A stretch of 64,000 nucleotides of DNA, taken from Botryllus schlosseri. Taxonomy: Eukaryota. Under the pieces are notes generated by a model that saw nothing but the letters and a program-made list of their open reading frames with translations, did not search any database and was not told the origin of the DNA. The position numbers and the translations under genes were made by a program. Position 1 is the first letter of the stretch; each line of letters begins with the position of its first letter. The stretch is from assembly GCA_051294905.1 (NCBI GenBank), contig CM119371.1:6884001-6948000 (forward strand), given 5' to 3'. This document shows positions 5,155-45,801 of this stretch, in pieces.

Positions 5155-5270
5155 TTCGATTTGTTTGAAATACGGTCAGATTTGTTTGAAATGAGGTCAG
5201 TCTCATGTTTGAAATGAGGATAGTCATGTCAGAAATAAGGATAGTCATGTTTGAAATAAGGATAGTCGCT
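5155..5270. repeat. Short tandem repeat, ~21-bp unit (tttgaaatragg-atagtcatg)
   Basis: About five degenerate copies visible. Confidence 0.7.
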
Positions 5271-5322
5271 ATATTCACTATAAAGTCAGTTGCAGTACCA
5301 GGCACGACTTCCCAGTGGTAGC

Positions 5323-14970: not shown

Positions 14971-16025
14971 TTGTAACCCAAGATATATTTGGAAGCACGT
15001 ACATACGGTACTATGTGACTTGTGAGTATACCTTTTGAAGAGTGAATAACTTGAGAGCAAATATCGTACCAGGTTCAACAACGAAGAGGAACAAGGAAGA
15101 CATCATCCACAATCATTTGAAATTTTCATGCATTCAGTTATTCAGTGCTGTGGGTTATTTCATCTGAATTATAGGATGTGTAAAACTGATACCACTTACG
15201 AACAGCAATCAGTAGGTTCCCAACTCATGATATCAGCCACATAACCATTGTGGAATCAATTGTCCAGGTCATTAAAATCATCGACCATATCTATATTGAA
15301 TGAATAATGGACTAAACAGATAATGGGCTGTATCAACTAAAATTGCTTGCAGATTATGCACTGTGGTACAAATAATGAAGTATATTTCCACAAAATTACT
15401 GCTTACTACTACTATTACATTCATCAAATGATATGAATCTTACCGTAACAGTAGTTTACACTTAAATTTGAAAATCCGAACATTCAAAGTTACGCCGATT
15501 TGAAACAAAACATTCACAATTTTAAAGGCAATTATGATGGATTGAAAATGAAATGAAAATTGAAATTGTGAGCAACTTTCTAGATAGTTGACGGTCAAGA
15601 GCTTTTCTAGTTACTGAACTGACAGAAGTTCTAGCATCGTCGTTTACTTGTTTGGTGTGAATAATGATGCTGGTGTTTTGTTGTGTGATGTTCTTGCAGC
15701 CCCTGCTAGATCAGAGTCAACATTACTAACGGTGTCATAGCCAGAGGTGGGTTGGGGTGGTCGGAAACCGCCTCACCCTAACACATATTCTATCTCCAAC
15801 GTTTCTTTGCTCATTTCCAATTCAGTAATTTGCATTATCAGTTCTGCAGTTGCTTCGAAGTTGAATCTACATAATTGCATTTTAGTTCGCTAGTCACGGA
15901 TTTTTAAAGCATGTTAATTCTAATTCTAGAAGTCGATTCTGAAAAGTGAGTGGTTTTACTTCTAGTTTGAGTCGCACATTTTGAAAATCCAGTAATTTGC
16001 ACAAGTCTGATTAGGAGAGTGCAAT

Positions 16026-17653
16026 CTATCTCTTCAGAAATACGGATGTGAAAATTTGGAAACATTGATCTACTTTTGGTTTCACTATAGTCCATTTGTC
16101 TTGCCATATATCATACTTTTCAATTGCAAAAGAGGTTTCGTAATCTGTTACAGCAAATATCCACTTGTCAACGTGATACGCAGAAACTTGACACTGACAA
16201 GCATTCATAGAAGATAATGAAGTCCACTGAGCTGAAGTAACATCGTAACATTCTACGTTGTTGACTTTCTTTCCTCCACTCGCCCCACCGATCAAAAATA
16301 TCTTCTGATCAATTGCAACAACACCACCGAAACATACAGGATATCTCATTTGGTCGAGATCAACCCACTCTGATGAGGACGGAGTGAATCTGCAGAATGA
16401 TGAAACTTCATCATAATCATCTCCTATACCTCCGATACAATAGATGGAATCATTCACTGATACCAGACTTGTATTACATATCGCTGTTGGTTTGTCTTCG
16501 AGTTGAATCCAGTGATTAACGGGTGAAGTAAACATTTCCACACCACTTGTTGCTTTATGACCACCTCCTCCAATAACGAATATCGATCCGGACAAAGAAA
16601 CTGAGCGAGGACTGAATCCATGGTGACAAATCATATCTTTCATCCTTTCCCATTTTGAATTTTTGCTCTGCAAATTGAGTCGATAAACTGATTTATTCCC
16701 ACATAGAACGTAGATATACGAGTCTAGAAAAATCGCCGAAAAATTTCTTGAATTTTGAAACGTCTCATCATGAAACTTCTCTACTTTCTCAGTTACTGGA
16801 TTGAAGGATCGCATATAATCTGCATTACGATCGAAAAGAATTATCAATTCATCATTGCCAATTTCTTCGTTCATTTCGTGCGATGCTTTTAGAGCTTCTA
16901 AAAGATGTCCATTGATCAACTTGTACAGTCTTAAGTCGTTACTGATAATTAGGTTTGATTCCAAAAAACGTTCTAAAATGCGGGAGAGACTTTATGAAAC
17001 TTGATCGCTTCAAGACACTCGTGCAAATGTTCCCGATTTTTGCAATTTTTCTCAATCCAATTGAACAATACCGTTAGTTTTTCTTCTTCGCATAACTTTG
17101 ATTGTTCAGACTTCACAAAATTGAGGATGTTAGTTTTTTCAATATTTCCAAATTCGGGTTAGTTTGAAATTTCCATGATATTTTCATGAAAAAATGCTCT
17201 ACATCGCGAAGAGACGGCATCCAGTCCATACATATCGGCGACATTTCTTGTGGAAAAGTAATTCAATACATAAATTGATCCCTCCAAAACGTCAGATACT
17301 GCCCGTTTCACATCTTCCAACTGCATCATCATTGCGACATGAAGAAGATCATTCATCTTTTCATCAGGAATCTCTAATTTACCCGAATATATGAAACCGA
17401 TGCAGTTTTTCACACACTGAGAATCGACCTCTTTCAAAACGACTTTCCCTTCGCGACTCTCTTTAGTGTCGTGTTTCAACATAGCTTTGAAATAAGCACA
17501 ACCAGCCGACAACACATTCTTGTGAGTGTAATAGACATCATCTCCAACTTGAATTATGAAATCACAATGATCGTTTTCTTGCTTCATTCGATGTAATTCT
17601 TCCATCATCTTCATTGAATGTATCTCTACATTTCGACACACAATCTGCACCAT
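16026..17653 (-). pseudogene. BTB-BACK-Kelch copy 2, disrupted
   Basis: Collinear with copy 1. CAA>TAA nonsense codon at 17159-17161 (ISN* versus ISNQPEF in all paralogs). 1-bp deletion in the A-run at 16975-16978 (ttctaaaatg versus ttctaaaaatg). The 194 nt between the two ORF pieces is not a multiple of 3. Confidence 0.9.
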
Positions 17654-18451
17654 GATTGTCAATCAACTATAACTATCCTACGAATATTATAATATAGTCA
17701 AGCACTGTTATTGAATTGAAGATGATTACAACACACAAGACACAAGTATAATGCCTGTTGAAACAATCATAATACGCATATCAACGTCACGAGTATGAAT
17801 TGAAGGAAATTCAACTACACACAAGGTGAACACTGAACAGTGCTAAATCAGAGGCATCCCTTCCATTATGCAGTTATGAAAAAAATTTTCCATCGTTTTG
17901 CTCAACTTTTTATTCGTTGAATTGACACGAACCCAAAGAGTTATTGCGGTCGATTACCACCGCCTCGCGAATGATCGAGTTGATTATCCGCAATCTTAAT
18001 TATATTTTGGATCATTGTAAAATAATTTCACACTATGGTATATTCCAGAGGGGCGGCCGTATCTGTTTCACGCTCCAGCCGAATATCACAAAGATTGATT
18101 TTAAAAGAGCAGCAACGAGAAAGATCACGCTGATTTTACTCCGTGTTTGGAAACGAAATCAACGAAGCATGTAGCTTGTCAGTGTCATCTGACGGATAAC
18201 ACTGGTCTCCACGATTTTTGCGCCCGGACTTCTTTGGGTCAATTACGCAATTATAACTAATTTGGGGGCGCTGAATACGAATCTGACGTTATCTTTGCTC
18301 TATCATATCACGTTGTTGAGATATTATATATGTTGAATAACATAACATAACATTGTTGGGTTATTATTTTTATCTGAACAAGTCACACACAATGTACAAT
18401 GCGATAAGACACAATGCGATGTCATGAACAGATAAGAGGATGTCGAACGAC

Positions 18452-19668
18452 ACGCATCAGTAGCGAATATTTCTACTTCTTCGAGGTATTCAAGTATATT
18501 TGGCTACTTGCAGTACTTACTGAACGGTAATGTTTTACAATACTTCAACATCTACCTGAAGCCTGAACAGTATTCTGGATGAACCAATGATTATACAATG
18601 ATTGGAAACTACCGTGACCTCTGCGTTTCAGCAGCGTGTACTCAAATATCAATAACATCATATATAAATAAATATCAAGTGGAAGTAATTCTAGTTTTCT
18701 GAGTACTCGGGTTAGTTTGCCTATTTTCTCGGGTAATTGCTGTGCTTTCATACCACTCACCAAACAACAGCATCACAACTTGGTTTTCGCCAGGGTTATC
18801 TAGATATCCCTGGGTTTTGAATGTATTTGAAAATAGCACCCACATATTCATTGGATGGTCATTTTGTGGTAGTCATGAAAGCTTCACCGTCCAATTTCAA
18901 AAGTGACTATTTCTAACTAACTGCGTACGTCACAGATTTCTATTTTCGCTACTTCTATTTAAACCTGAGTAAATCATTGCAGCAAAACTTCAGTAGCAAC
19001 GCTGTATACATCAATCTTCTCTGACAAAACGTCGCCTATCCATGATCATTCCACAACGCATCAGTAGCGAATATTTCTACTTCTTCGAGGTATTCAAGAA
19101 TATTTGGCTACTTGCAGTACTTACTGAACGGTGATGTTTTACAATACTTCAGCATCTACCTGAAGCCCGAACAGTATTCTGGATGAACCAATGATATATA
19201 TAGGCTACAATGATTGGAAACTACCGTGACCTCTGCGTTTCAGCAGCGTGTACTCAAATATCAATAACATCATATATAAATAAATATCAAGTGGAAGTAA
19301 TTCTAGTTTTTCTGAGTACTCGGGTAGGTTTGCCTATATTCTCGGGTAATTGCAGTGCTTTCATACCACTCACCAAACAACAGCATCACAACTTGGTTTT
19401 CGCCAGGGTTATCTAGATATCCCTGGGTTTTGAATATATTTGAAAATAGCACCCACATATTCATTGGATGGTCATTTTGTGGTAGTCATGAAAGCTTCAC
19501 CGTCCAATTTCAAAAGTGACTATTTCCAACTAACTGCGTACGTCACAGATTTCTATTTTCGCTACTTCTATTTAAACCTGAGCAAATCATTGCAGCAATA
19601 CTTCAGTAGCAACGCTGTATACATCAATCTTCTCTGACAAAACGTCGCCTATCCATGATCATTCCACA
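18452..19668. repeat. Near-identical head-to-tail tandem duplication, ~604-bp unit
   Basis: acgcatcagtagcgaatatttctac starts at 18452 and again at 19056. Both units end ...ccatgatcattccaca. Confidence 0.95.
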
Positions 19669-22600
19669 AAATCCAGGTCGACTTTTCAGGATCCCATCAT
19701 GTTATGCAAAGAAATGAGGAATGATAAAACAAGATACATATACTTCACAGATGTAACATTTACGAATGCAGTATTGAATTTTTAAATCCCTAATTCATGC
19801 GTTTATAAACGAAATGATGCATGCATTTGAAAAACAAACATTAATATGCAACGGTACAGAAATAGATCGATGCAAAAGTAACAATGTGGACAACAAAAAC
19901 AGTTTATGTGTGATCTTTCAAGCATTAACAGTGCTAGATATCAATTTTTGACATCTTCAACTCGGGAAAATTCCCTTCAAAAATGCAAAAGTACACTCGC
20001 TTTCGTTAGCTCAAACGTGGCCAATTACGACCTGAATGATGCCTATCTACTCGTGATGAAATCTCCTGCCTTGTTTAGATGTTAGCTTGCTCTTGCCCGA
20101 ATCATTGGTAGGAAGGGGAACATTTTCTGTAACTGTATATGATATCAAGGATAAAAGAGTCAGGAGGAGATAACGATGAATTGAATACTAAAACCTTCAA
20201 TAAATGTCAGTATGTCCACACACGTTGGGGGAGGAACTGTAAGCATTTCCCCTGAGCTTACATATGACATTCCTTTAGTGCGTGATAATACCAGCATATT
20301 TTGAACTATAATTGTCACAGATGTGATTCCCTGGCAAACACAGATTATTCCAGCAATTGTGGTTTTCCCGCATCAATCGATCCGATGGCAGTTCCAGACT
20401 GGGAACGAATTGCACATTTTTCAATATCCTTCAACTTGTTGTAGTATGCAGCCTATTCTTACTTGCTCCCAGTTGGAGGTGGTGTCTGCGTGTTTCATAC
20501 GAGCACTCTTTTCTGGTAAATTCAAGGTTGGAATTGTTCAATATACGCCCTGTCAACAAATACATTGGGCCCACCTTCGACCAGTTACGTGACGGAAATC
20601 CATCCCGAACGAGGCGGACGCTGGAATAAAACGCGGTCCGTTTTTTATGGCAAGAAGAAGCAAATTGTGATATAGACTCGATTAAAATTATAATTGCAAC
20701 TACACAGTTATTTCCAAATTAGATTAAAATAAGAACAATGGCTATACATTTTTTCCATATGAGATTGAAATTAGATCTACTCAGTGTTTTCCAAATCAGA
20801 CAAGAATTACACAATTTGTGAAAACATTGGACATGGAATGAGGTTCAGTTCATATCAAATCATAGATTTTTCTCATAAGTATGCGAATGGCAAATGTGAA
20901 GACATCAAGCTTGGCTCGATTCATGTGACACAGACACGTGACCAGAGAATGGATTAGAAATAAATTGAGAGCAAGGTAACATTTCACAAATGAGATAATG
21001 GTATAATTACCGTAGTCTCATTACAACAACTAGAATTACAGTAACTAGTTGTCCAAGTCTGCACAGAGGTAGTCAGTAGCCTAACGAACTACTCGGGTAG
21101 TTCTCCTGTTCTTACATCACTTATTTCACTAAATCAAATTTTCGGCTACTTTTACTCTGTCACATTTCTAACTTACCCACCTTTCGCTAATCACAGTTTG
21201 TCATTGACAAGTAGAAGTGTTAAGTTCTTCCAATAAGGGAGATAGAGTGACAAAGATGGAGAAATTCAGGTGCTGCTTTTGCGAAGAGCCCTGACTTTTT
21301 GTCATGCTTTGCGCGAATATACGGGGTGACCAATATCATACCACTGAAGTATGGGTCAATAAAATTAATGTTGCAGTTTGCCTGGTTCATGTACGTAATT
21401 TCAGGTCGCCTAGTTGCCATATAGCAGTTTCATGACAGTAAGCTTGACTAAAGTTCGGCAAAACGTTTGGAATTATACGACCTGCCTTATTTCAGTTTGC
21501 TTCCTATCAGCTCAAAACATCAATGTAGTGTCCTGGTAGAATTTATCCACATCGGTCATTGTCTTATTAACTAAAGACATTGCAATACGACCGACGGCGC
21601 CATACCATCACATTTTCTGAAATGGGGCATTAGGGTTTCAGATTCTTGGGATTCACTGATTACATCGCAAAGTTGCCTAAAAAAGGCTGCACACCAAATT
21701 TGGCTCGGTCCCAACCAGCCTCGGCAGAGTGAATTGAAGTTTTTGAGATTATTTTTAAAAAATGCTTTAAATAAAAATCTAACTGTCAACCCAAGGAAAT
21801 TGTTGAGTTGCCTAAAAGAATGACGCATAACAATTTTTGCTCACTTCCATCCGTTAGAAGCGATGTTATTGCAGTTGAAAGTTTTAGATTTGCAAAATTA
21901 GCATTGATGGTGGGTGATCCCTGAATTATTGATGAAATACTCAATTAACTTCTCTTCTACAGGTTGAAATTGCGTCAAATTTGTTTTGCAACGTTTCCGT
22001 AGACAACTCGACCATTTCATGAGGCTCACAGCAGAAAATTGAAAAAAAAAAGAATAAAATTTTTCTAATAAATTATAAATTTCAATTGACTATGCCTCGA
22101 CTTCTACTGGTAGGAATTGAGACAAATTTGGTGTGCTGCATTATTTTACGCAAACTAACATTTTATTCAGCGAATCCTCGGGATACGGAAAAGCTATTGT
22201 GAACAACCATAATGCACCCAATCGCAGATAGTTATTTTTCAGTGACTATTTCGCGACAACTAAACGACTTTACCCCCCTCCGAATTTACTGGAAATCAAA
22301 GAGCCATATTTAGTGCATGAATTATTTGTCCGCTCAGATTGAGCTGGATATAGGTCCTATAGGATATAGGAGTCTGTAGGGCGTAAATATATGATGCGCT
22401 GATGTTAAGGAAGATAACATGTTGATGAGAAAATCCATGGGATTCCGATTGATTCATTAACACTGATATTGTCTGCATTGTGGACAGAATGTTTGCTATA
22501 TATTTCTATATTGCCACCAACTCTGGACATGTTACAAAATCACACAGAACTCACCTGTCGCCATCATTCCTGGGAATCTTAATGTCGGAATCTTGTCTTT

Positions 22601-27438: not shown

Positions 27439-28814
27439 CATAAGTCGTCACGATCCCTCGAAATCTTGATATCACGATCTTGTCTTTTGACAGGCGACAA
27501 AACCTGAAAGAAAATCTTATAACTACACAGCCGTTAAAAATAGACTTGGACTATTTACGTCTCAAATGCAACTTGAATATGTAAAAGTGAACATTTGATC
27601 CGCCAATCATCTTGAACTTTATAGAGCAGAGGTCCTTGAACGCCGGTTCGCCAAGTACATTTAGAACTTTATTTGTATCAATTCGACAACACAAGAAGGT
27701 AAACCCTTGTTCATTATTGGAGAAATGCACACCAAAGGTGAAGTTGATTTGAAAGTTTGTAATGCATTTTCTGCATGGTGTCATAATAGGGAGTTCATGG
27801 TCTACTTTGGGCATACATAACAATGGTGCAACTGCTGTACAAAACTGTTTGAAAGTAGCCTCCAATTTCTGACAAGTTACACGTGAAAGCTACTGAGACT
27901 TTTAAACAAACTTCCTTGACTTCCGACAGTACAATTAATCACTTGTCAGTATAATAAAGACTGCACCAAATAGCAATGTCGCATTTCTTTTAGAGGATAC
28001 TGAACACTCACAATCAAGTTACTGGTATGTAACAGGAATTTGCGAGCTTCGACAACGGTCTCTACTAACGAATACAGAGGCTTGCATGAATGTCTGCTTC
28101 CAAATGAGATTCCAAGGAGAACATGAGACAGGGGCAAGGATAGCTAAAAGCCATACCCCAATTGTTCTAGTAACAGGCACGTAAGGTTCATTCAGTTCCT
28201 ACAAACTGGGATAATAACTTCAACGTAGCCTCAAATTGAAAACTGATATCATTATGTCAGTAATCAATTGTTAAATACTTGGGTAGGTTTGAATAGAATG
28301 TCGATTTACATCCTAATTGCGGATTGAAAATACGAAGCCAGATAAAACTTACCTTGAATGAAAATTGGTGAACTTGCTTGAAAGTTGCAACTTGTTTGAC
28401 TCTGATTGAAAGAAAATTCCTGCCTGTGATGATAAATAAACGATACTTCGCGATAGAAACGATTCAAAATTCGAACTTTGCAGTCACCAAATGTGTTGAG
28501 ACTTGTTGTTACAGATTGAAATAAGATCGTTCATCGGATCGCGGTTGAGTTGAGTATAAACACCCCACTATAGCCTTGATGGCAAATAATCAAATCCGAA
28601 ATCATTGATTTTGTAAAAAGATAAACTCAGAATTACGGTACTCACTTTTATCTCCCAGGTAGAATTTTCATAAATTGATGCATTACAGATTCCAACTGAT
28701 TGATAACGGTTGAGATTGTCATGCAAACTTCTTTTATCACCAAAGCCTTTTCCCATCGGACAACCAGACCATTAAATGATTCGTTATAAATTATGATCTT
28801 CTGATCGCAATTAA
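27439..28814 (-). pseudogene. Best-preserved run of exon-like blocks of a decayed spliced gene repeated in every spacer
   Basis: AG/GT-bounded blocks at 28646-28814 (169 nt), 28353-28423 (71 nt), 28157-28242 (86 nt) and 27439-27503 (65 nt). The same boundaries and sizes recur in other spacers. Product not recognised. Confidence 0.55.
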
Positions 28815-29160
28815 CTGTAACAAAATGAAGAATGGTCATGAAAAGTAAACTCAATGAATGTATAATTGAATTGTACATGCACCACAGGCTGTTTAAGCCT
28901 GGCTACTGTACCAGCAAAAGTGGTAGTCTATATAACAAGTTGCCGATAGTCGCCTCATATAAACAGAATCGAAATGGTTTATTTTGAGAATACATACAAA
29001 TTTGGTATCCTGATCATGGATAACGAAAAGCGAACGACTTTTTTCAATCAAGGTGTCCCCAAATTCGTCAAAAACAATCAATAGAAAGATTTTATTATGC
29101 AATAAAATATTGTTTATGCAAGATTCTCATAAAATAAGACGGGCATATGAACTTGTAACC

Positions 29161-29538
29161 CAGGGTTGTAATGACTCGAGTCAGGACTCGAATCGAGTCC
29201 GACTTGAGTCACCATATTTTGGTGACTCGACTTGACCATGGAGTCATTTTTTCAAATGCGCAAAATGACTCGACTCGAGTCAATTTTTGTATTGACTCGA
29301 CTTGTAGGCCTACTCGAACCAAGTCATATGACTTGAAACTAGGACGGCCAAGACAGACATTTCATTGTAACTTCGAAGAATAGTAAAAGTCACCACATGA
29401 TTGGTATTTCGTCTATTAGTTCTGATACTTGCGAAATGGGCTACAAACTGATTGTACCGAGGAAAATTACAATAGTATCATCATGAATGCGAACCATTCT
29501 ATTTCACTCGAGCAGAGTTGAAAGAAGTGGGTTGGACT
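29161..29538. mobile_element. Truncated GACTC-family MITE (segmental duplicate of 787-1146)
   Basis: Starts CAGGGTTGTAATGACTCGAGTC after the same ttgtaacc flank. End approximate. Confidence 0.75.
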
Positions 29539-30536
29539 CAAAAAACTGAACAGTAAACACAATGACTTTGAAGAGTGAATAGCTCGAAGCATATATCGCA
29601 TGCGGCTCAACTAGTATTGAGATAATTCTCGCTCATTTGAAATTTCCATGCATTGAGTCATTGTATGCTGTGGGTTATTTCATACCGAATTAGCGCAAGT
29701 GTGAAACTTGAACCGCCTGCAGTATGCAGTAGGTACGAACTCCTGATATTGGCCATATAACCATTGTGGCAACAGTTGTAGGCTACAAGTCGTCATAATC
29801 ATTGACCATGTCTATATTGAATAGGCCTAAGGAACTAAATATATGATTGGATGCATCGACTAAATCTACCGGCCAGATCATGCACTGTGGCACAATTAAT
29901 GAAAGTATATTACCACAAAATTACTGGTTACTATTGCTATTACATTCATCAAATGATACGAATTTACCAAAAAGCAGTTTACACTTATCAAATTACTGCC
30001 GCATTGAAATAAAAATGCACAATTTTCAATGCAATTATGATGGATATGGCTTGATGAATTGAAAATATCAAATGTGAGAAACTTTATATTCATTCATGTC
30101 AAAGCTGCAGACTTGTACTAACTACTAATTGAGTTACTTCGACGGTCAAGACTAGTTCTAATTACCGATTTTGAAAGCAAATAGTTGTAGTGTTGATATT
30201 AGTGTAAATACCAACAGCGGTACACTGGCACAGTAATTGGGTGGGTTGAAAACGGTACATTTCAAACTATTATTAAAATTCTTTTTAAACGCCGACTCTA
30301 TCCCGGATATTTTCACTTATCAGGCTCATTTACAATTCAGTAATTCACATTAGCAGTACTGCAGTTGCTTCAGAATTGAAACTACTAAGTTGTTTTTATT
30401 TGCCAGTTACGGATTTTTAAAGCATGTGAATTGTAATTCTAGTAGCCAGTTTTGAAAAGTGAGTGGTTCTAGTTCTAGGTTGAGTTGCATTTTGAAAATC
30501 CAGTAATTTGTACAAGTCTGCTCAGGTGAGTGTAAT

Positions 30537-33500
30537 CTATCTCTTTACAAATATGGATGTGTAAATTTCAAAACATTGATCCACTTTTGGTGTCACTATT
30601 GTCCATTTATCTTGTGATATATCATACTTTTCGATTGTATGAGAGGTTTCGTAATCTGTTACTGCAAAAATCCACTTGTCAATGTGATACACAGAAACCC
30701 AATCGTGACAAGCATTCATAGAAGATAAAGAAGTCCAGTGAGCTGAAGTAACATCGTAACATTCTACGTTGTTGACTTTCATTCCTGGTGTCCACCCGCC
30801 GATCACAAATATCTTTTGATCAACTGCAACAACACCACTCCCACATACACGATATCTCATTGGTTCGAGATCAACCCACTCTGATGAGGATGAAGTGAAT
30901 CTGCAGAATGATGAAACTATGACATCATCTTGTCCTCTACCTCCGATACAATAGATGGAATCATTCAACGATACGAGACTTCCATCATATATCGCTGTAG
31001 GTTTGTCTTTCAGTTGAAACCATTGATTCACAGGGGAAGTAAATATTTCCACATCACTCGTTGCTTTACTATAACTTCCTCCAACAACGAATATCGATCC
31101 TGACAAAAAAACTGAGCGAGGATTACTTCCATGATCACAAATCATATCTTTCACCCTTTCCCATTTTGAATTTTTGCTCTGAAAATTGAGTCGATGAACT
31201 GATTTATTCCAACATAAGACGTAGATGTACGAGTCCAGACAAATCGGTGAAAACTGTGTTAAATTCCTAAACTTTTCCTCGTGAAACTTCTCTAGTTTCT
31301 CAGTTACTGGATTGAAGGATCTGATACAATCTGCCTGATTGTCAAAGAGAATTATCAATTCATCTCTGCTGATTTCTTCGTTTGTTTTCTGTGATGCTTT
31401 TAACAGATGTCGAGTGATCAACTTGTACAGTCCGAAGTCGTTACTGATAATTTGGTTTGATTCCAAAAGACGTTTTAAAAATGCCGAAGAGACTTTATCA
31501 AACTTGATCGCTTCAAGACATTCGTGCAAATGTTCCTGATTTTTCCGATTTTTCTCGACCCAATTGAACAATAACGTTAGTTTTTCTTCTTCGCATAATT
31601 TTGATTGTTCCAACTTCACAAAATTCTGGATGTAAGTTTTTTCAATATTTCCAAATTCGGGCTGGTTTGAAATTTCCATGATATTTTCATGAAAAAATGT
31701 TCTACATTGCGTAGAGATGACATCCAGTCCATACATATCGGCGACATTTCTTGCAGAGAAGTAATTCTTTACATTAAGTGTTTCCTCCAAAATGTCAGAT
31801 ACTGCCTGTTTCACGTCTTCCAACTGCATCATGATTGCAACATGAAGAAGATCATTCATCTTTTCATCAGGAATCTCAAATTTGCCGGAATATATGAAAT
31901 CGATGCAGTTTTTCACACACTGAGAATCAACCTCTTTCAAAACGACTTTTCCTTCTCGACTCTCTTTAGTGTCGTTTTTCAACATGGCTTTGAAATAAGC
32001 AGAACCAGCCGACAATACATTTTTGTGAGAGCAATAGACATCATCGGGCATCCCTAAAAGACGGAGAAGCGGAGGCAGCGGAGACAGCGGAGGCAGCGGA
32101 GAATGGACCCTAAAACGCGGAAGCAACGGAGACGGCGGAGAGAGCCAAAAATGCCGATTCCTAAAAGACGGAGACAGCGGACCTAGCGGAGAGCGGAGAT
32201 TTCGGTCATTAACCTTTATAGACACGCGCGACATAGCGGACGGATACTGAAAGCGGAGTCCGGGACCCCGCGAAATGGACATAGCAGACGGTTATATAAT
32301 ATAGACAGCGGAGATCAGGGCGTATCGGAAGATATTTCGAAGCAGTGGAGAATAACGGAGAAGTCAGCCATGCAAGTTCAAGGCCAATTGGGCGACTGAT
32401 TGCCCATCGATGAGATGACATAGCGGGCGGTTATATAATACAAGGAAAGCGGAGTTCGGGGCGTATCGGAAGATGTTTCGAAGCAGTGGAGAATAACGGA
32501 GAAGTCAGCCATGCAAGTTCAAGGCCAATTGGGCGACTGATTGCCCATCGATGAGATGACATAGCGGGCGGTTATATAATACAAGGAAAGCGGAGTTCGG
32601 GGCGTATCGGAAGATGTTTCGAATCAGTGGAGAATAACGGAGAAGTTAGCCATGCAAGTTCAAGGCCAATTGGGCGACTGATTGCCCATCGATGAGATGA
32701 CATAGCGGGCGGTTATATAATACAAGGAAAGCGGAGTTCCGGGCGTATCGGAATATGTTTCGAAGCAGTGGAGAATAACGGAGAAGTCAGCCATGCTATT
32801 TCAAGGCCAATTTGGCGACTGATTGCCCGTCGATGAGATGACATAGCGGAGGGATACTGAAAGCGGAGTTCGGGCCCCCGCGAATTAGACATAGCGGACG
32901 GTTATATAATATAGAGAGCGAAGATCAGGGCGTATCGGAAGATGTTTCGAAGCAGTGGAGAATAACGGAGAAGTCAGCCATGCAAGTTCAAGGCCAATTG
33001 GGCGACTGATTGCCCATCGATGAGATGACATAGCGGAGGGATACTGAAAGCGGAGTTCGGGCCCCCGCGAAATAGACATAGCGGACGGTTATATAATATA
33101 GAGAGCGAAGATCAGGGCGTATCGGAAGATGTTTCGAAGCAGTGGAGAATAACGGAGAAGTCAGCCATGCAAGTTCAAGGCCAATTGGGCGACTGATTGC
33201 CCATCGATGAGATGACATAGCGGGCGGTTATATAATACAAGGAAAGCGGAGTTCAGGGCGTATCGGAAGATGTTTTGAAGCAGTGGAGAATAACGGAGAA
33301 GTCAGCCATGCGAGTTCAAGGCCAATTGGCGACTGCTGATTGCCCGTCGATGAGATGACACAGCGGGCGGTTATATGATACAAAGAAAGCGGAGTTCGGG
33401 GCGTATCGGAAGATGTTTCGAAGCAGTGGAGAATAACGGAGAAGTCAGCCATATGCAAGTTCAAGGCCAATTGGGCGACTGATTGCCCAATGCCCATCGA

Positions 33501-36016
33501 TGAGATGACATAGCGGGCGGTTATATAGTACAAAGAAAGCGGAGTTCGGGGCGTATCGGAAGATGTTTCGAAGCAGTGGAGAATAACGGAGAAGTCAGCC
33601 ATGCAAGTTCAAGGCCAATTGGGCGACTGATTGCCCATCGATGAGATGACATAGCGGGCGGTTATATAATACAAGGAAAGCGGAGTTCAGGGCGTATCGG
33701 AAGATGTTTTGAAGCAGTGGAGAATAACGGAGAAGTCAGCCATGCGAGTTCAAGGCCAATTGGCGACTGCTGATTGCCCGTCGATGAGATGACACAGCGG
33801 GCGGTTATATGATACAAAGAAAGCGGAGTTCGGGGCGTATCGGAAGATGTTTCGAAGCAGTGGAGAATAACGGAGAAGTCAGCCATATGCAAGTTCAAGG
33901 CCAATTGGGCGACTGATTGCCCAATGCCCATCGATGAGATGACATAGCGGGCGGTTATATAGTACAAAGAAAGCGGAGTTCGGGGCGTATCGGAAGATGT
34001 TTCGAAGCAGTGGAGAATAACGGAGAAGTCAGCCATGCAAGTTCAAGGCCAATTGGGCGACTGATTGCCCATCGATGAGATGACATAGCGGGCGGTTATA
34101 TAGTACAAAGAAAGCGGAGTTCGGGGCGTATCGGAAGATGTTTCGAAGCAGTGGAGAATAACGGAGAAGTCAGTCATGCTATTTCAAGGCCAATTTGGCG
34201 ACTGATTGCCCGTCGATGAGATGACATAGCGGACGGATACTGAAAGTAGAGTTCGGGGCGTAGCGGAAGATGTTAAGAAACAGCGGTGAAAAACGGAAAA
34301 GTCAACCATGCAATTTGGTGTATTTCAAAGTATTCGATAATATATAACCGGCACATATTTTTTTCGATTTGGGTTATTTCCGGTACTTACTGAAGTGGTA
34401 ATGTTTCGCAATTACTTCAACATCTACCTGAACAGTATTCTGGATGAAATTATTACATTTGCAATTCGGATTTTGTAAAGTAGAAAGTAGTTCAGTATAA
34501 TATTCGACAACTATCAACAGTTAAATTGTCATACGAAACGCGTCCGCTATGTCATCTCATCGATGGGCAAGCAATCACCGAAGTGGCCTGAAACTCGCAT
34601 GGCAGACTTCTCCGTTATTCTCTGCTGTTTCGAAATATATTTCGCTACGCCCCAAACTCCGCTTTCAGTATATTATAACGATATAACCGTCTGCTATGTC
34701 ATCTCATCGATGGGCAATCAGTCACCTTGAACTCGCATGGCTGACTTCTCCGCTATTCTCCACTGCTTCGAAACATCTTCCGATACGCCCTGATCTCCGC
34801 TTTCTATATTATATAACCGTCCGCTATGTCTATTTCGCGGGGCCCCGAACTCCGCTTTCAGTATCCGTCCGCTATGTCATCTCATCGACGGGCAATCAGT
34901 CGCCAAATTGGCCTTGAAATAGCATGGCTGACTTCTCCGTTATTCTCCACTGCTTCGAAACATCTTCCGATACGCCCCGAACTCCGCTTTCTTTGTACTA
35001 TATAATCGCCCGCTATGTCATCTCATCGACGGGCAATCAGTCGCCCAATTGGCCTTGAACTTGCATGGCTGACTTCTCCGTTATTCTCCACTGCTTCGAA
35101 ACATCTTCCGATACGCCCCGAACTCCGCTTTCCTTGTATTATATAACCGCCCGCTATGTCATCTCATCGATGGGCAATCAGTCGCCCAATTGGCCTTGAA
35201 CTTGCATGGCTGACTTCTCCGTTATTCTCCACTGCTTCGAAACATCTTCCGATACGCCCTGATCTCCGCTTTCTATATTATATAACCTTCCGCTATGTCT
35301 ATTTCGCGGGGCCCCGAACTCCGCTTTCAGTATCCGTCCGCTATGTCATCTCATCGAAGGGCAATCAGTCGCCTTGAACTCGCATGGCTGACTTCTCCGC
35401 TATTCTCCACTGCTTCGAAACATCTTCCGATACGCCATGATCTCCGCTTTCTATATTATATAACCGTCCGCTATGTCTATTTCGCGGGGCCCCGAACTCC
35501 GATTTCAGTATCCGTCCGCTATGTCATCTCATCGACGGGCAATCAGTCGCCCAATTGGCCTTGAACTTGCATGGCTGACTTCTCCGTTATTCTCCACTGC
35601 TTCGAAACATCTTCCGATACGCCCTGCTCTCCGCTTTCTATATTATATAACCGTCCGCTATGTCCATTTCGCGGGGTCCCGGACTCCGCTTTCAGTATCC
35701 GTCCGCTATGTCGCGCGTGTCTATAAAGGTTAATGACCGAAATCTCCGCTCTCCGCTAGGTCCGCTGTCTCCGTCTTTTAGGAATCGGCATTTTTGGCTC
35801 TCTCCGCCGTCTCCGTTGCTTCCGCGTTTTAGGGTCCGTTCTCCGCTGCCTCCGCTGTCTCCGCTGCCTCCGCTTCTCCGTCTTTTAGGGATGCCCGACA
35901 TCATCTCCTACTTGAATTATGAAATCACAATGATCGTTCTCCTGCTTCATTCGATGTAATTCTTCCATCATCTTCACTGAATGTTTCTCTACATTTGGAC
36001 ACACAATCTGCACCAT
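30537..36016 (-). pseudogene. BTB-BACK-Kelch copy 3, interrupted after codon 40 by a Foldback-type element; otherwise open
   Basis: Native ATG at 36016. 35897-36016 encodes MVQIVCPNVEKHSVKMMEELHRMKQENDHCDFIIQVGDDV. The rest (DDVYCSHKNVLSAG...FVKR*) is an open frame from 32045 down to 30537. Confidence 0.92.
32046..35896. mobile_element. Non-autonomous Foldback-type (MULE-like) DNA transposon, 3851 bp
   Basis: Termini GGGCATCCCTAAAAGACGG...CCGTCTTTTAGGGATGCCC. Perfect 9-bp TSD gacatcatc (32037-32045 and 35897-35905). Inverted arms at about 32046-34312 and 34541-35896 built of 141/187-bp tandem units, with a loop of about 230 bp. No transposase ORF. Confidence 0.93.
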
Positions 36017-36729
36017 GATTGTTGATCAACTACAGTATATAACTATCCTACGATTATTATAATATAGTCAAGCACTGTTATTGAAGTGAAGATGATTACA
36101 ACTCAAGTAGGCCTAATGCCTGTTGATTGTTGAAAGAATCCCAATACGTCTATCAACGTCACGAGTATGAATTGAAGCAAATTCAACTACACACAAGGTG
36201 ATCATGATTCATGATCACTGAACAGTCCTACAAAGATTGGTTTCAAAAGAGCAGCAACACGAAATATCACGCTGATTTCACTCCGTGTTTGGAAACGAAA
36301 TCAGCGAAGCATGTAGCTTGTCAGTGTCATCTAACGGATAATTAGTTATTGCATTTGCAGTGTAGCCGTTACCAATGATATATATTTATCATTGCGGTTA
36401 CTGACGGGTAAACCTTTTTCTATGAGTAATAGCTATTCATTTTAATAATATTTTCAACATTTTGAAACACCGCAATACTGCGACTAGGTGATGTAGAGAA
36501 GAGGCATGCACGCACATTGAATGAAAAGTACAGCACAGAATATAAAAGACAAGCTAGACAAGACAAGCTAATACAATCTTTGAAAATATACCCATCATCA
36601 TCATCATTGGTTTATTAGCAATTTTATCCGTCGTATACACCACAAAAAATGCGATACAATGAAAAGAAAGGAAGATGTCGAAGCGACTTGGAGTTGTCTA
36701 TGGGATCGGACACCCACCTCAGCCTAGGC

Positions 36730-37725: not shown

Positions 37726-40700
37726 GCCTAGCAGTTCATATCAAATCATAGTTCGTTCTCATGAGCACGAGAATGGTCAGTGTATGTATCGCAAGCTTGG
37801 CTCGTTTCAGACCATACAGTTCTTCTGTAAACTTTACAGTAAACCGGAAATTAGAATGGAACATTTCACAGATTACATCAGATTACTGGCATTTCCTCAA
37901 ATTAGTCGAATAAGGCAATTAAAACTATCCAGTTATCCAAGTCTGTCAGGACCGTATAAGCCTTTTTGGGTCAATTGTTTGATTTGGCGGTCCGACTTGG
38001 ATTGTTACTTGGGGCCTGCAGTGCGCTTCGCCCGGTCACTAGATGTCGACAAAGTGAAGGAGGCGCTTTTCGTAACGACTTCTCCCTCGACAAATTTGAA
38101 ATTTTTTCGGTGTCTGATTCCGTCGTCGTGACAACTTGCGACACAGGTAGGGGGTCTGGGGTTTGAATTTGATGAATTCTTCGTTTGATTGAACCGCCAC
38201 ATTCTTACTCGCTTTGAAACGTCACACAGGACTTGGCCGGTTCACGTCCTCCTCGATCTGCAAAAAATGGAAGGGGGTCAAGTCAATAGTAGCATCGGAA
38301 TCACGGGATCAACTCTATTGAAATCACGAGATGTCGAAAAAGCATCTATCAGAGCTGTAGTAGCATTTCATTTGCTCTTAAAGCAGCGTTACAAAATCAG
38401 CGTTCGAGATTACCACATCACGATCTAACACTGGTTTTTAACGGCAGTACACGAGACATTTTCAGGAAACCGGAAGCCGATTGAATAATATAATTTTTGA
38501 TATTGCAAGCTAGGGTAGATCATGTGAAGCAATTTTGCTTCTAATTGCTAAAAATTTATGGTTTACATCAGCCGAATGACCGTTTAATACAAGATATCAG
38601 ACTGCATCAGGTGATTTTAATTGCTTGCAAACCATTTAGTCAATGGGTAGAACTATTGTTACAAACATTTTGCTATTTAGGGCTGTTGAGGTTAGTGTAA
38701 AAACAGGAAATTTGGAGAAGAAAGGTCTAACAGAGTGATCATAATCAGAAACTGCTTAAAAGACGATATTCTTGGTGCTCTCACGATTTTGAGTCGGTAT
38801 TACAATAAATGTATGTGACTTGCAAGTGTATATTTCTACATTGCTAATCTCAGGGTTGGGGAGTAAAAATCCAAATCGTGGGGTTTGAATTTTAATCCCG
38901 AAATCCCAACCCTCATGACTCTCAAAAAAACTCACCATCTTTCGTGGGACCCGCGCTTATTCTGGTATCCTATCTTGAAAGAAAGATTGCACGGATGATA
39001 GGAATCAGAACTTCTACTTTTCAGAGTTCTGTAAGTAGATTTTGTCTACATCTACAACTACCTCACCGTGATCGGTTTTTATATTCTTCCACTTCTACAG
39101 ATTTTTAGGAAAAACTAGTTGCTTGTTACAATTTGGATTTCGCAGGGGATTTTTGATGCTCGCAATCTTTTCACTAGGCCCACAATACTTTATTTTTTTA
39201 CTATTTGGAAATTTCTACTTGTACTTGAAAAGAAATTTACCACACCGCTTACCCTTTCAGTCGAGTACCAACGACGAACACTTTGACCACATCTGCTCCT
39301 GAAACAGCGATGTAGAATCGCCGCCAAACCCAACCTTCACCCACCTTTTTAAATCGGGATCAATCGACTTTTCCTGTAGTCGTTCGGACCAAGGGTGGGA
39401 CCTGGGCCTCATTCTGCCGGATCACTCCCGGTGCTGGGTGGGTGGGTCCTTTGACCAATTGGGCTCCATGCCGGAAATCCATCCTGAACGAGGGCGACGC
39501 TGGAATGAAAGAGGTTGTTTTTTTGGCAGCACGAAGCAAAATGCGACACTGACTCGATTACAATCATAATTGTAAATACAAGGTGTCTTCAAAATTAGAT
39601 TATAAGTAAAATGATAGGTACATTATATTTCCGAATGAGGTTAGAATCAGAATTACAGCTAGCAGACTTTACCTCAGTCCGAATTTACTGGAAAACAGTG
39701 CACAATATTTTTTGCATGATTTCTTTGTCAAATCAGAATGAGTAAATGCTGGATGTATGCGTAGGTAGGGTGTAAATATCTGGTGTGCCAATGCGAAGGA
39801 TAGCAACATCTTACAAGAAATGACATTATGGTATCGAAGTCCATTCGATTTCAATTGATTCATTTCACACTGATATTGTGATCATTGTGGACAGAATGTT
39901 TGCAATATCTTACACCGTTGCCAATTCTGAACATGTTACAAAATTACACAGAAACTCACCTGTAATCATCACGATCTCTCGAAATCTTGATACAGACATC
40001 TTGTCTTTTGGAAGGAGATAAAGCCTGAAACAAAATCTCATTATTATGCATCAGGAAGGATAAGACTAGCACTGCTACTTGAATGTGACTCGAACAAAAA
40101 CAGTGAAGCTATTGAACAGTTTTCCACCATTGACCTCTAACTGCATAGAGCCATAGAATGCGAAAAATGCTCCCTTCTTGGGTAGAAAATCTGTTACTGT
40201 GCGCAGGGTGTGTTTCGCCTTGATTTACTCATTCATCTTTATGGCATCACAGAGCCGTCGTCGTGCGTGTTAAAACCATTATTACACATTCCCCAGTGCT
40301 CAATGTCCGACGTCGATGTATTTTTCCGTAACGCAAAAGAGGTCAACCACAATCGCCTCTAACGAATACAGATCAGTGCATGAATGCAAGCTTTTAAACG
40401 GGTTCTCAAGGAAAATGTGCAGTAAACGCGAGGATAACCCTTAGTTCAAGGACTCGTCAATTAGCAGGTAGCCGTTGGACAGATTCGTTTACTACAATGC
40501 GCTGGATCAAGTTTGGTGACCTAGGGGATTTGAGATGTGACATCTGACATTTTTGGGGCGGTATACGTAGGCCTATAGCAGTTTATCGTCGGGAGGTAGC
40601 CTACTTTGGAAATTAAATGGAGCAACTTAGTGACCAACGGGAAATAAATAATGACAATAGAAATACATCAAATTTTCAAAAATATATTTAGTTATCGCGA

Positions 40701-41967
40701 GCCGTGTGGTATTTCAGCCATTTTTCTAATGTTTCATTCATGAAAAAGATATAGAAGATATAAATTCAATGTGTAAAAAGTAAGCAGTTTCCAGTTTCAC
40801 CTAAAAACTTATAATAAAAGCTGAAGTACCGTAACCAAAAATATAACCACTCGAGTACGTCGTAAAAGCAGGTAAAACCAACTTGAGTATTCTGAAAAGC
40901 AGAGGAACTTCCTTGTCGATCACCTCTGGATATGAGCTGGTAATTGTGATGTGAATAGAATACCCGACGTCCATCCTGATTGTGGGTTGGAAATACGCGA
41001 CCCGATAACACTCCCTTGAATCTGATCCAATGAAAATGTTTGCCTGTTACGAGAAGGAAAGGATAGACCGGGTTAGAATCGGTTTAAATTCTAATTTCAC
41101 AGACAGAAATACGATCGTTACTAGAGGTCGAGTCAAGTTTATTGTTGATAATTTTATCATTTCAGAACATCCCAAAATAGCTTCGATGGCAAATAATCTA
41201 ATCCAAAATCATTGATTTTGCGAAAAGATAAATCCAGAATTGCTCACTTTTATCTCCCGCATAGAATTATCACGCGTTGATGCATGTCAGAATCCAACTG
41301 ATTGAGATCGGCTGAGATTATCATGTAAACTGCTTTTATCACCGAAGCCATCTTATAGCAGACGACTACACCATTAAATTATATAATATAATATATAAAT
41401 ATGAATATGATGATCGTCTGATTGCAATCCACTATAACAAAATAAAGAGTGGTTATGAAAAGTAAAATCAATGAGTCTATATACAACACAGATTGCTCAA
41501 ACCTGACTATCATACCAGAAGATGTGGTAGGCCTATATGAGGAGTTGCCGATAGTCGCCTCATATAAACACAATCGAGTAGGATAGGCATATAAACTTGT
41601 AACTAGTAACCTAAGCTCTATTTCGAACACATATTGTTGTAAGTATACCTTTTGAAGAGTGAATAACTTGAGTAAATATCTTATGTGCCCCAAGATGGAA
41701 GAGATCATTCACACACATTCGAAATTTTAGTGCATTGAGTCATTGAATGCCGCGGGTTATTTCATACAGAATAATGGGAAGTGAAAAATTTAAAGGCCCT
41801 ACAGTAATCAGTAGCTTCCCCGCTCCTGATATTGGCCATATAAATATTTTGGAATGAATTGCACAAGTTATCAAAATCATCGACCATATCTATATTGAAT
41901 AAGCAACTAAGTATATATGATGGGCTGTATCAACTAGAATTGCCGGCAGTATTATTATACACTGTGG

Positions 41968-42851
41968 CAGTGTTGGGATCAAGTCACAACCTTCGAGTCA
42001 CGAGTGATTTCGAGTCCTTGCAGATTTTGACTGGAGTCAAGTCAAGTCAAGTCACTCGTTTTTTGGAGGTGACTCGAGTCAAGTCGAGTCAAGTCAAGTC
42101 AAGTCACGAGTCAAGTCACGATTCGAGTCAAATTGAATTTTCGAAGTATGAATGATGATGCAAAGTCACTACATTTTGCTAACTGGTGAAAGACAGAATA
42201 ATTGGCCTTTGGCCATTTAATTAGATAGAATCTAATAACAAATATAAAGACAAATATACATGCAAAAGGTGTTGTATCGCTCACGATGCTCATAAAATAT
42301 GTGAGTAACTGTGTATACCTACATGTTACAGTCTGTTATTACCAACCACAATAGAGAATCGAATACGAAGCCTCGACAAGTTGAAACAAATTGATATGGT
42401 ACAGTAGGCTACACTACACAACCGCGAGAGTATACACATAATATTTGTTATTTCGATTTAAATTATTCTTAAAGGTTTGTAAAAGTGAGCACTGAGTAAA
42501 CATGCACTGAGCCGTCTAAGAAAAAAGATACGTTGCTATTAGATTAATCTACTACTATACTACGACAACGTAAGCTGTGATCGTGTCGTTTGCGGTCAGT
42601 AAAGTAAATCAGCGAATGACTGATTGCCCTCACATGGGACATCTTCGTATCGCGAAAAATCCGAACATATATATAATGAGGTGATTTAATCTACACCGTT
42701 GACTTGAAATTGACTCGTTGATTTTGCTCCGAGTCACGAGTCAATTGGCATTTTTGAAGCGCCGAGTCAAGTCAAGTCAAGTCATTTTTTCAAAGTGACT
42801 CGAGTCAAGTCAAGTCATACGAAAAAGTTGACTCGAGTCATCCCAATACTG
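41968..42851. mobile_element. hAT-type MITE with (caagt)n/GAGTC subterminal repeats
   Basis: TIR CAGTGTTGGGAT / ATCCCAATACTG. No TSD. A lone right end of the same family lies at ~59575-59708. Confidence 0.8.
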
Positions 42852-44169
42852 CCATTAAATGACACGTTATCCAATATCGTGATCTTCTGATTGCAATCCA
42901 CTATAACAAAATCACGAGTGGTTATAAAAGTAAATCAATGAATCTATATACAATAGGTTGCTCAAGCCTGGCCATCGTATCAGAAGATGTGGTAGATAAC
43001 GAGTTGCCGATAGTCGTCTCATATAAACATAATCGAAATGGTTAGTGTGAGTATGCGAGAAAATCCGGTATCTTAATCATAGATAGCGAAAAAATGACAC
43101 CTTTTTATTAGGCTCACCCAAATTCATCAAAAACAATGAAAATAAAAAGATAAACTAAAATTTCATCCGATTTTATTTCGTGCTTAATCATTGTTAACGC
43201 ACGATTCTCATAAAATAAGAGAGGCATATAAACTTGTAGCTTGAAACCTAAGCTCTATTTGGAAGTGCCTACTGTTGTGAGTATTCCTTTTGAAGAGCGA
43301 ATAGTTTGAGCCAATATCATGTGCGGCTCAACAAGGAAGAGATCATCCACACTGATTTGACTTTTTCGCGAGCCACTGAGTGCTGCTAGTTTTTTCATAT
43401 TGAATTATGTGAAGTGTACGACTTATGAGGCCGACAGTAATCAGTAGGTTCCCAACTCCTGATATTGGCCATATAAACCGTTGTGGAATGAATTTTCCAA
43501 GTCATTAAAATCATCGATCATATTTAGCCTATATTGAGTAAGGAACTACTGTAAATATGTGATGGGCTGTATCAACTAAAACTGCCGACAGTAATCACGG
43601 TATTATGCACTTTTGTATATTTCCACAAAATTACAAGTTACTATTGCTATGACATTCATCAAATGGCACAAATCTACCAAAAGTAGGTTCCACAATCCAC
43701 ATGCCCAAATTTCAAAAACTCGACTAACAAAGTTTTGAAACAAAAAATGCACAATCTTCAAGGCAATTATGATGGATTCAAAATGAAATGAATCAAAAAT
43801 TGTAATCGTGAGCGACTTCATTTTTTTATTCATGTCTCAGTTGCAGACTTGTACAAACTACTAATCTAGTTACTTAGTTGATGGTCAAGAGTAGTTCTAG
43901 TTGCAAATTTTGTAAGCGAGTAGTTTGGCGTGAATAGTGATACTGGTGTTCTGTTGTGTGACGTTCTTGCAGCTAATGCTAGCTTGGAGTCAACACTACT
44001 AACAATGGCGTAGCCAGGGATTGGGTTTAGGGGGTTGAGATTTCTCCATTTGAACTCCAAATCCCGTTCTTTTTAAACTCAGAGTAATTTGCATTATAAG
44101 TACCCTACTGCACTTGCTTCAGACCTGAGAATCCATTAATTTGCACAAGTTTGCTGAGTTAAGTGCAAT

Positions 44170-45801
44170 CTATCTCTTCACATATGCGGATTTGTAAATT
44201 CGACAACACTTATCAACTTTTGGCTTCACTACAGTCCATTTATCTTGCGATATATCATAATTTTCAATTGCATTAGGGGTTCCTCCATCTGTTACTGCAA
44301 GAATGCACTTGCCAATGTGATAAGCACAAACTCGACCATGACAAGCATTCATAGAAGATAATGAAGTCCATTGAGCTGAAGTAACATCGTAACATTCTAC
44401 GCTGTTGACTTTCTTTCTTCCTCCCCTCATCCCACCGATCACAAATATCTTTTGTTCAACTGCAACAACACCACTGTCAGATACAGCATAACTCATTGGG
44501 TCGAGATCAACCCACTCTGATGAGGATGGAGTGAATCTGCAGAATGATGAAACTATGACTTCATCTTGCCCTATACCTCCGATACAATAGATGGAATCAT
44601 TCAATGATACAAGACTTGTGAAACGAATCGCGGCAGGTTTGTCTTCTAGTTGAATCCATTGATTCAAGGGTGGGGTGAATACCTCCACCACACTTGTTGC
44701 TTTAGGAAAACTTCCTCCAATAACAAATAGCAATCCTGACGAAGAAACTACACGAGGATAGGTTCCATGCTCACAATTCATATCTTTCTTCCTTTCCCAT
44801 TTTGAATTTTTGGTCTGAAAATTGAGCCGATGAACTGATTTATTCCCACATAAAACGTAGATATACGAGTCTAGAGAAATCGCCGAGAAATGTGCTAAAT
44901 TTTTAAACTTCTCATCATGAAACTTCTCTACTTTCTTAGTTACTGGATTGAAGGATTTGATACAATTTGCTTCATCATCAAAAAGAATTATTAATTCATC
45001 TTTGCCGATCTCTTCGTTTGTTTTCTGTGATGCTTTTGAAGCCTTCAAAAGATGTCCAGTGATCAACTTGTACAGTCCTAAGTCGTTACTGATGACTAGG
45101 TTTGTTTCCAAAACGCGTTCTAAAAATGCCGGAGAGACTTCATCAAACTTGATTGCTTCAAGAAATTCGCACAAATGTTCCTGATTTTTGCGATTTTTTT
45201 CAACCCAATTGAACAATAAGGTTAGTTTTTCTTCTTCGCATAACTTAAATTTTTCTGACTTCACAAAATTGAGGATGCTAGTTTTTTCAACGATTCCAAA
45301 TTCTGGTTGGTTGGATATTTTCACGATATTTTCAAGAAAAAATGCTCTACATCGCGTAGAGACGGCATCCAGTCCATACATATCGGCAACATTTCTTGTG
45401 GAAAAGTAATTCTCTACATTAAGTGATCCCTCCAAAACGTCAGATACTGCCTGCTTCACGTCTTCCAACTGCATCATTATTGCGACATGAATAAGATCAT
45501 TCATCTTTTCATCAGGAATCTCAAATTTGCCCGAATATATGAAATCGATGCAGCTTTTCACACACATAGAATCGACCCCTTTCAAAACAACTTTTCCTTC
45601 ACGACTCTCTTTTGTATCGTGCTTTAACATAGCTTTGAAATAATCACAACCAGCCGACAATACATTTCTGTGAGTGTGATAGACGTCATCTCCCACTTGA
45701 ATTATGAAATCACAATGATCGTTCTCTTGCTTCATTCGATGTAATTCTTCCATCATCTTCACTGAATGTTTCTCTACATTTGGACATACAATCTGCACCA
45801 T
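44170..45801 (-). CDS. BTB-BACK-Kelch copy 4, intact, intronless, 543 aa
   Basis: Uninterrupted ORF paralogous to copy 1. The ATG (MVQIVC) is 9 nt inside the TTG start used by the ORF track. Confidence 0.95.
   Translation of the reverse strand: MVQIVCPNVEKHSVKMMEELHRMKQENDHCDFIIQVGDDVYHTHRNVLSAGCDYFKAMLKHDTKESREGKVVLKGVDSMCVKSCIDFIYSGKFEIPDEKMNDLIHVAIMMQLEDVKQAVSDVLEGSLNVENYFSTRNVADMYGLDAVSTRCRAFFLENIVKISNQPEFGIVEKTSILNFVKSEKFKLCEEEKLTLLFNWVEKNRKNQEHLCEFLEAIKFDEVSPAFLERVLETNLVISNDLGLYKLITGHLLKASKASQKTNEEIGKDELIILFDDEANCIKSFNPVTKKVEKFHDEKFKNLAHFSAISLDSYIYVLCGNKSVHRLNFQTKNSKWERKKDMNCEHGTYPRVVSSSGLLFVIGGSFPKATSVVEVFTPPLNQWIQLEDKPAAIRFTSLVSLNDSIYCIGGIGQDEVIVSSFCRFTPSSSEWVDLDPMSYAVSDSGVVAVEQKIFVIGGMRGGRKKVNSVECYDVTSAQWTSLSSMNACHGRVCAYHIGKCILAVTDGGTPNAIENYDISQDKWTVVKPKVDKCCRIYKSAYVKR

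Follow-up and report, generated by a model that had tools for sequence, protein, structure and literature searches.

A foldback element of probable Mutator-like affinity within a BTB-BACK-Kelch gene of Botryllus schlosseri

How did a 3,851-bp structure with mirror-image arms of tandem repeats come to lie within the coding sequence of a BTB-BACK-Kelch gene of Botryllus schlosseri, and what became of the gene? The locus lies in a 64,000-bp stretch of contig CM119371.1 (GenBank assembly GCA_051294905.1, positions 6,884,001 to 6,948,000, forward strand), hereafter called the window, in which all positions are counted. The structure occupies 32046-35896 and interrupts the third of six paralogous kelch genes (copy 3). 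Our analysis makes it likely that this is a non-autonomous foldback DNA transposon of the Mutator/Mutator-like element (MULE) superfamily, which would probably fall within the Rehavkus group or close to it. The assignment is carried by an exact 9-bp target-site duplication (TSD) and by terminal inverted repeats (TIRs) that are long, end in a G/C-rich tip and hold subterminal tandem arrays. A reading of the bare letters, here called the original prediction, had already proposed a recent Foldback insertion at this site.

Ends, arms and spacer of the element

The boundaries given in the original prediction were right when the ends and the TSD were rechecked. The 9-mer GACATCATC lies on both sides of the element; the duplication is exact at 9 bp, and no other length among those tested (2-15) fits. 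At fixed ends, a 9/9 match would be expected by chance with a probability of 6e-6 from base composition, and it was found in 44 of 2,000,000 random flank pairs (~2e-5). The inverted ends show one mismatch in their outer 240 bp and five in 345 bp, in register, and align end to end with 98% identity across 390 bp. These are the almost identical termini of about 240 bp described before, and they contain the expected 9-bp subrepeats, present in 3.8 copies at each end (32068-32101 and 35841-35874). The outermost 184 bp can be read as three degenerate modules of ~50 bp each.

Further inward, the arms (2.3 kb on the left and 1.4 kb on the right) consist of tandem units, 13 on the left and seven on the right, that enclose a spacer of ~225 bp (Table 1), which agrees with the earlier count of about 13 versus about 7-8 units around a ~230-bp loop. 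The 141-bp unit length was confirmed, and the 187-bp variant could be resolved into a 139-bp unit preceded by a 48-bp module (net +46 bp), the latter being a shortened version of the unit start. The predicted 434-bp higher-order duplication is exact, and the run of 0 differences at this repeat spans 554 bp. Of their 1,091 and 977 distinct 31-mers, the two arms have only 417 in common, and the order of modules is not the same in both. Unit variants are common to the two arms at places that do not mirror each other (two differences between L15 and R7, one between L2 and R6), and the TATTT-bearing unit variant comes before a 48-bp-type start in three of three cases. Divergence is greatest in the innermost units, and the innermost one of the right array shows at least 20 differences from all other units. 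When the 434- and 187-bp duplications are discounted, nine units face seven. The shared non-mirror variants, the TATTT/48-bp pairing and the diverged innermost units speak for a shared ancestral arm or for exchange between arms, which would have been followed by separate slippage in each, a course also reported for the ends of Galileo (PMC3573991).

The GC content of the spacer is 32%, as against 50% for the arms and 39% for the flanks. Within the spacer, 80 bp resemble a 604-bp tandem duplication (18452-19669, 96.6% identity between its copies), in which none of the seven frames scanned, of 15 listed, matched Pfam; this is the observation that bears on a Pack-MULE, in which a piece of a host gene lies between the TIRs. 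The arms are polarised by strand: in the left arm GCGGA occurs 30 times on the plus strand and 0 times on the minus, in the right arm these counts are 0 and 30, and the flanks have 0.2-0.3 per kb. As tandem arrays inflate counts, CGG[AG] was tested on single pieces. It was found 12 times in a single outer domain, where 3.2 were expected (0 of 10,000 shuffles as high), and was less enriched in one unit (5 versus 1.5 expected; 90 of 10,000 shuffles).

None of the 11 element frames scanned, out of 57 listed of at least 45 aa, reached a Pfam cut-off, and an Rfam search with E up to 1 gave 0 matches. Matches below the cut-off to DUF2929 and Herpes_VP19C, from a scan of 19 short frames, were dismissed as chance hits on repeat-derived peptides. 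The longest frame that lies fully inside the element is 126 codons of repeat. With an outer domain and internal tandem repeats in long TIRs around a non-coding middle, the element has the structure that defines the foldback class.

Further copies and assignment of the element

Parts of the region 30400-36400 were present in 20 of 24 listed public sequencing runs (one organism, nine studies), with only three covering half of it or more. Four runs were compared on 30400-32277 at 93% likeness, an interval that takes in the left junction only. Of these, X1 may be the source sample, X5 is a different sample from a different study, and X23 is an RNA run of which ~6% was read. In X1, 39 contigs with C at position 32104 had a summed depth of 12,700, with mismatch-free flank contigs at depths of 8.3, 10.8 and 25.7 and a rare end variant at 7.6. 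In X5, seven such contigs summed to 9,810, and the listed kelch pieces lay at 64-331. Summed contig depth was not taken as copy number, the kelch family being deep too, and we read these values only as many copies of the element end in more than one individual. The fourth run, X6, yielded one 107-bp contig that is identical to copy 3 (seven mismatches to the nearest window paralogue) and ends short of the junction.

In X23, 31 RNA reads leave the element exactly at 32046 and enter a flank that is absent from the window, which independently confirms this terminus and shows that a second insertion site exists. Most of these reads mismatch the window copy at seven places in 32080-32134, so older copies exist as well. 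Read direction in X23 was uninformative, with both directions found on TIR and kelch alike. At 32174-32181, reads and contigs that match the first ~130 bp of the end turn into different, still GCGGA-like sequence, either a sibling family or an internally deleted form; 11 X23 reads diverge past 32181. Within the window, the empty site is present in five of five paralogues, which align without gaps across the site and have a single copy of the 9-mer position. Dispersed copies and empty sites, as expected of a foldback transposon, are thus both on record, and the multi-copy family suspected earlier is borne out by the deep, variable end in X1 and X5 and the foreign flank in X23.

According to the cited sources, MULEs have TSDs of 8-11 bp and long TIRs, with a TSD of 9 bp in Rehavkus (PMC6446971); arthropod MULE tips are mostly G/C (PMC13359780), and Rehavkus TIRs in Tribolium bear variable subterminal satellite arrays (10.1101/2024.12.02.626372). 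The element agrees with MULEs in its 9-bp TSD, seen in one copy, and in TIRs that exceed 100 bp (345 bp in register) and start with GGG. It agrees with Rehavkus in the same TSD length and in the tandem arrays set subterminally in long inverted termini. The MULE link drawn in the original prediction is therefore supported by TSD length and end structure. A Maverick/Polinton-derived palindrome was rejected, the element having a 9-bp TSD and GGGCATCCC ends.

Biochemical work on Muta1 of Aedes aegypti offers a model of how such an element might move. The GGGTCTACCC tip of Muta1 binds its transposase, and its 12-bp subterminal repeats increase binding, cleavage and excision (PMC5499845). By analogy, a DDE transposase from a full-length relative would act in trans and bind the terminal GGG-N3-CCC palindrome, and the CGGA repeats that run with strand polarity through the outer domain and arrays may aid it as putative binding sites. 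The element would then be excised and joined to its target by cut-and-paste with a 9-bp stagger. Its arrays would grow and shrink in each arm separately, by slippage or unequal exchange, which could give rise to the 13 versus seven units and to the 187- and 434-bp duplications.

Several points weigh against assignment to the MULEs. The TSD length is based on one copy, no transposase is linked to the element ends, and the role proposed for CGGA rests on analogy. Among the matches listed for the four runs there was no empty allele, no junction-bridging contig and no second TSD. Moreover, foldback structure has evolved more than once (PMC3169594, PMC4079207), so structure alone cannot fix the superfamily. 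Exact scans of metagenome, prokaryote and viral collections with the end or the unit gave 0 loci, as expected for an animal repeat, and are hence uninformative.

We weighed whether a real non-autonomous foldback might instead have been moved by a transposase from outside the MULEs, of the P/Galileo type or of Merlin. Merlin elements have TSDs of 8-9 bp and GG ends. Foldback-like TIRs are known with P-type transposases, the repeat number of Galileo differs between its ends (PMC3573991, PMC3169594), and no master element was found here. However, the TSD of Galileo is 7 bp long (PMC3573991), and since no fit was obtained here at 7 or 8 bp, membership of Galileo/P by this feature was rejected. In addition, the end motif and subterminal repeats parallel those of Muta1 (PMC5499845), and most foldbacks are considered to be Mutator elements (PMC4079207). 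A mover from outside the MULEs is thus unlikely.

The interrupted gene and the age of the insertion

The six paralogous genes of the window are intronless and lie on the minus strand, with Pfam BTB, BACK and Kelch matches in the three that were scanned. When the element and one TSD were removed in silico from copy 3, a 1,620-bp coding sequence (CDS) resulted that is open up to its terminal stop (539 aa), as was to be expected from the earlier claim that the host has no other lesion. The insertion splits codons 38-40, inside the Pfam BTB match.

The absence of a lesion in the 1,620-bp CDS is the real support for a young insertion. It bounds neutral decay since the event (95%) at less than ~3.3% from stops only, and at 1.5-2% with assumed indel rates. 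The recent date put forward in the original prediction thus finds backing in a divergence bound of ~1.5-3.3%, but not in the near-identical ends, which are not evidence of age. The ends of a DNA transposon are not reset by insertion, and end-to-end identity was for this reason rejected as an insertion clock. It is also unusable because the sole mismatch of the outer ends, at 32104, is a variant that occurs in other family copies. We had considered T32104 private to the window copy and dropped this, as ~7% (X1) and ~19% (X5) of the summed depth reads non-C there. By a rough counting method, pairwise dN/dS (the ratio of non-synonymous to synonymous change) with copy 3 was 0.35-0.38, not above the 0.40-0.49 found among the four intact copies, so copy 3 remained constrained until recently. 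Copy 3 differs from the window paralogues at 8-11% of non-synonymous and 21-26% of synonymous sites, which makes recent conversion from them unlikely.

These values also bear on the possibility that the element is MULE-like but old and immobile, the host frame having survived by chance or been repaired by conversion from a paralogue. Such an age would suit the diverged copies in X23, the sibling form that splits off after 32181 and the changes that set the innermost units apart from the rest, and polymorphism was not seen among the matches listed. It is hard to reconcile with a perfect TSD, a lesion-free host CDS, a dN/dS no higher than that of intact genes and a divergence that speaks against recent conversion, and we consider it very unlikely.

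The most likely effect of the insertion is the knock-out of one redundant paralogue, as the native frame runs into a stop after three codons of element sequence. Neither AATAAA nor ATTAAA was found in the element, on either strand. A satellite-armed MULE foldback that disables one BTB-Kelch member would represent one route of birth-and-death turnover in the cluster.

We also considered whether the gene, rather than being killed, is given a different start by the insertion, seeing that the kelch frame runs on into the left arm (Table 1). The palindromic TATA-like octamer TTATATAA, of which the arms hold 13 copies, lies at 32299-32292, 58 bases upstream (minus strand) of the in-frame ATG at 32234; an out-of-frame ATG follows at 32209 on the minus strand. 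The arm might thus drive a BTB-Kelch protein in which 63 arm-derived, proline-rich residues take the place of the first 37 native ones, an outcome to which we give little more than an outside chance. BACK and Kelch would be kept and the start of the BTB domain, which is the dimer interface, would be lost. Were excision as precise as that of Muta1 (~90% if the TSD is present; PMC5225508), the locus would offer an isoform switch, made by a transposon and reversible, within a large family of ubiquitin-ligase adaptors. The in-frame ATG is probably a coincidence, because the tip itself contains an ATG that will be in frame for one third of insertions into coding exons. Among the matches listed, no X23 read joins the element end to kelch sequence; the sample may not carry the insertion.

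An assembly artefact in the form of a fold-back chimera, named in the original prediction as what would overturn it, is scarcely credible: although the 434-bp repeat is free of differences over its long run and no record among the matches listed spans the element (left junction compared), the arms are not mirror copies of each other, a chimera would not leave 9 bp exactly duplicated with the host gene taken up again in frame, and RNA reads show this terminus next to a different flank. In a weaker form, the assembler would have over-expanded the 434-bp duplication, in which case the element is real and only the unit count changes.

Among the other kelch genes, those at 2155-3780, 44170-45801, 52758-54398 and 61600-63231 are intact, and copy 2 (15990-17662, minus strand) is broken, with a premature stop near codon 165 and, beyond it, a frameshift. 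A protein search with copy 1 gave 42 matches, including three relatives at 41-52% identity, the nearest in the database. Genome-wide, the intronless BTB-Kelch family looks very large, with summed depths in the thousands (X1 and X5, at 93% likeness). In each of the four runs, depth across the flank was highest over a 34-bp stretch just 3' of the kelch stop (30487-30520, also at 2105 and 15976), which has many different flanks, RNA reads included; it may be a small repeat or else a 3' element that the gene family has conserved. Segmental similarities of 91.6% (1-3669 and 28378-32045) and 85.7% (9208-10651 and 38634-40080) show that the cluster expanded via tandem duplication of multi-kb blocks. 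Gene-less downstream pieces recur at about 15020-15760, 41130-41970 and 43270-44030.

Other repeats were also noted in the window. For a segment starting at 18200, no TIR partner was found within the window. A complex of 21-, 24-, 41- and 65-bp tandem repeats at 5162-6850 is broken by a segment of 520 bp (5609-6130), which holds tandem units of 73-75 bp and is found again in inverted orientation at 56266-56796 (85%); these are probably nested repeats.

Table 1. Positions of the element, its parts and the two portions of the host gene in the window
Feature	Positions	Strand	Remarks
Whole foldback element	32046..35896	.	without transposase open reading frame (ORF)
Left TSD, GACATCATC	32037..32045	+	codons 38-40 of host gene (minus strand)
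Right TSD, GACATCATC	35897..35905	+	
Terminal imperfect palindrome, GGGCATCCC	32046..32054	+	mirror copy at 35888-35896
Left outer domain	32046..32229	+	3 degenerate CCTAAAA + (CGGA)n modules starting at 32046, 32105 and 32153
Left tandem array	32230..34315	+	13 full units of 139-150 bp and three 48-bp modules; at inner edge, a diverged partial unit
Two tandem 187-bp units	32840..33213	+	48+139 bp each; 1 difference
434-bp higher-order duplication	33214..34081	+	33214-33647 / 33648-34081; 143+150+141 bp; 0 differences
AT-rich middle domain (spacer)	34316..34540	.	~225 bp; no Pfam or Rfam match
Spacer piece	34369..34448	+	78-80% like 18499-18583 and 19103-19187; captured or shared repeat fragment
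Right tandem array	34541..35712	-	7 units (130-147 bp), four 48-bp modules
Right outer domain	35713..35896	-	1 mismatch to left outer domain
Host gene, 5' part	35897..36016	-	native ATG 36016-36014; frame stops three codons into element
Host gene, 3' part	30537..32045	-	rest of BTB, BACK, Kelch repeats; without stop or frameshift
Fusion ORF	30537..32282	-	arm ATGs 32282, 32234 and 32051 in frame; 581, 565 and 504 codons to kelch stop

Comparison with known elements

The original prediction held the family to be possibly undescribed. This may be true of the family sequence, as the terminal 12-mer was not found in a literature text search, but the architecture is already well described, and we compared the element with five systems as they are portrayed in the cited sources.

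Galileo, of the P superfamily, resembles the element in its long TIRs and in tandem repeats that change independently at each end, and differs from it in its THAP transposase and in its 7-bp TSD, as against 9 bp here (PMC3573991). Tm1 of root-knot nematodes shares composite TIRs, unequal motif numbers, a 9-bp TSD and paralogous empty sites that prove mobility; its motifs, however, are ~14 bp long and its 7-bp tips asymmetric, whereas the tips of the window element are perfectly inverted, and a Phantom-like transposase is known for it (PMC3169594). Tetris of Drosophila virilis resembles the element in plan, with a flanking domain, a variable array of ~220-bp units, a non-coding middle and a TSD of 8-10 bp. 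Its source likewise records no autonomous copy and assigns it to Mutator by TSD length (PMC4079207). The two differ in unit length, their sequences are apparently unrelated, and the window element has no evident separate inner domain.

Muta1 and its natural non-autonomous copy Muta1NA1, which has three and seven repeats around 315 bp, share with the element an imperfect GGG...CCC tip palindrome, short subterminal tandem repeats, a TSD of 8-9 bp and insertions near genes and, in the non-autonomous copy, repeat numbers that differ between the ends and an interior that is short and non-coding (PMC5499845, PMC5225508). In contrast, the TIRs of Muta1 measure 145 bp and have a single tier, made of 12-bp repeats, whereas the 2.3- and 1.4-kb arms of the window element have a second tier of 141/187-bp units and higher-order repeats; and Muta1 has a transposase, whereas none is known for the window element.

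Finally, Rehavkus, a Repbase group in or beside MULE, shares the 9-bp TSD and satellite-sized arrays of variable number in long inverted termini (PMC6446971, 10.1101/2024.12.02.626372). It is defined by a PHD-bearing DDE transposase that is absent from the window copy, and the likeness drawn here is one of structure. Should the ends match those of PHD-DDE-protease elements, the element would lend itself as a non-autonomous reporter of a Rehavkus-type transposase, in a group known mainly through database entries, and would permit a direct test of whether its 141-bp satellite units aid transposition in the way that 12-bp repeats do in Muta1.

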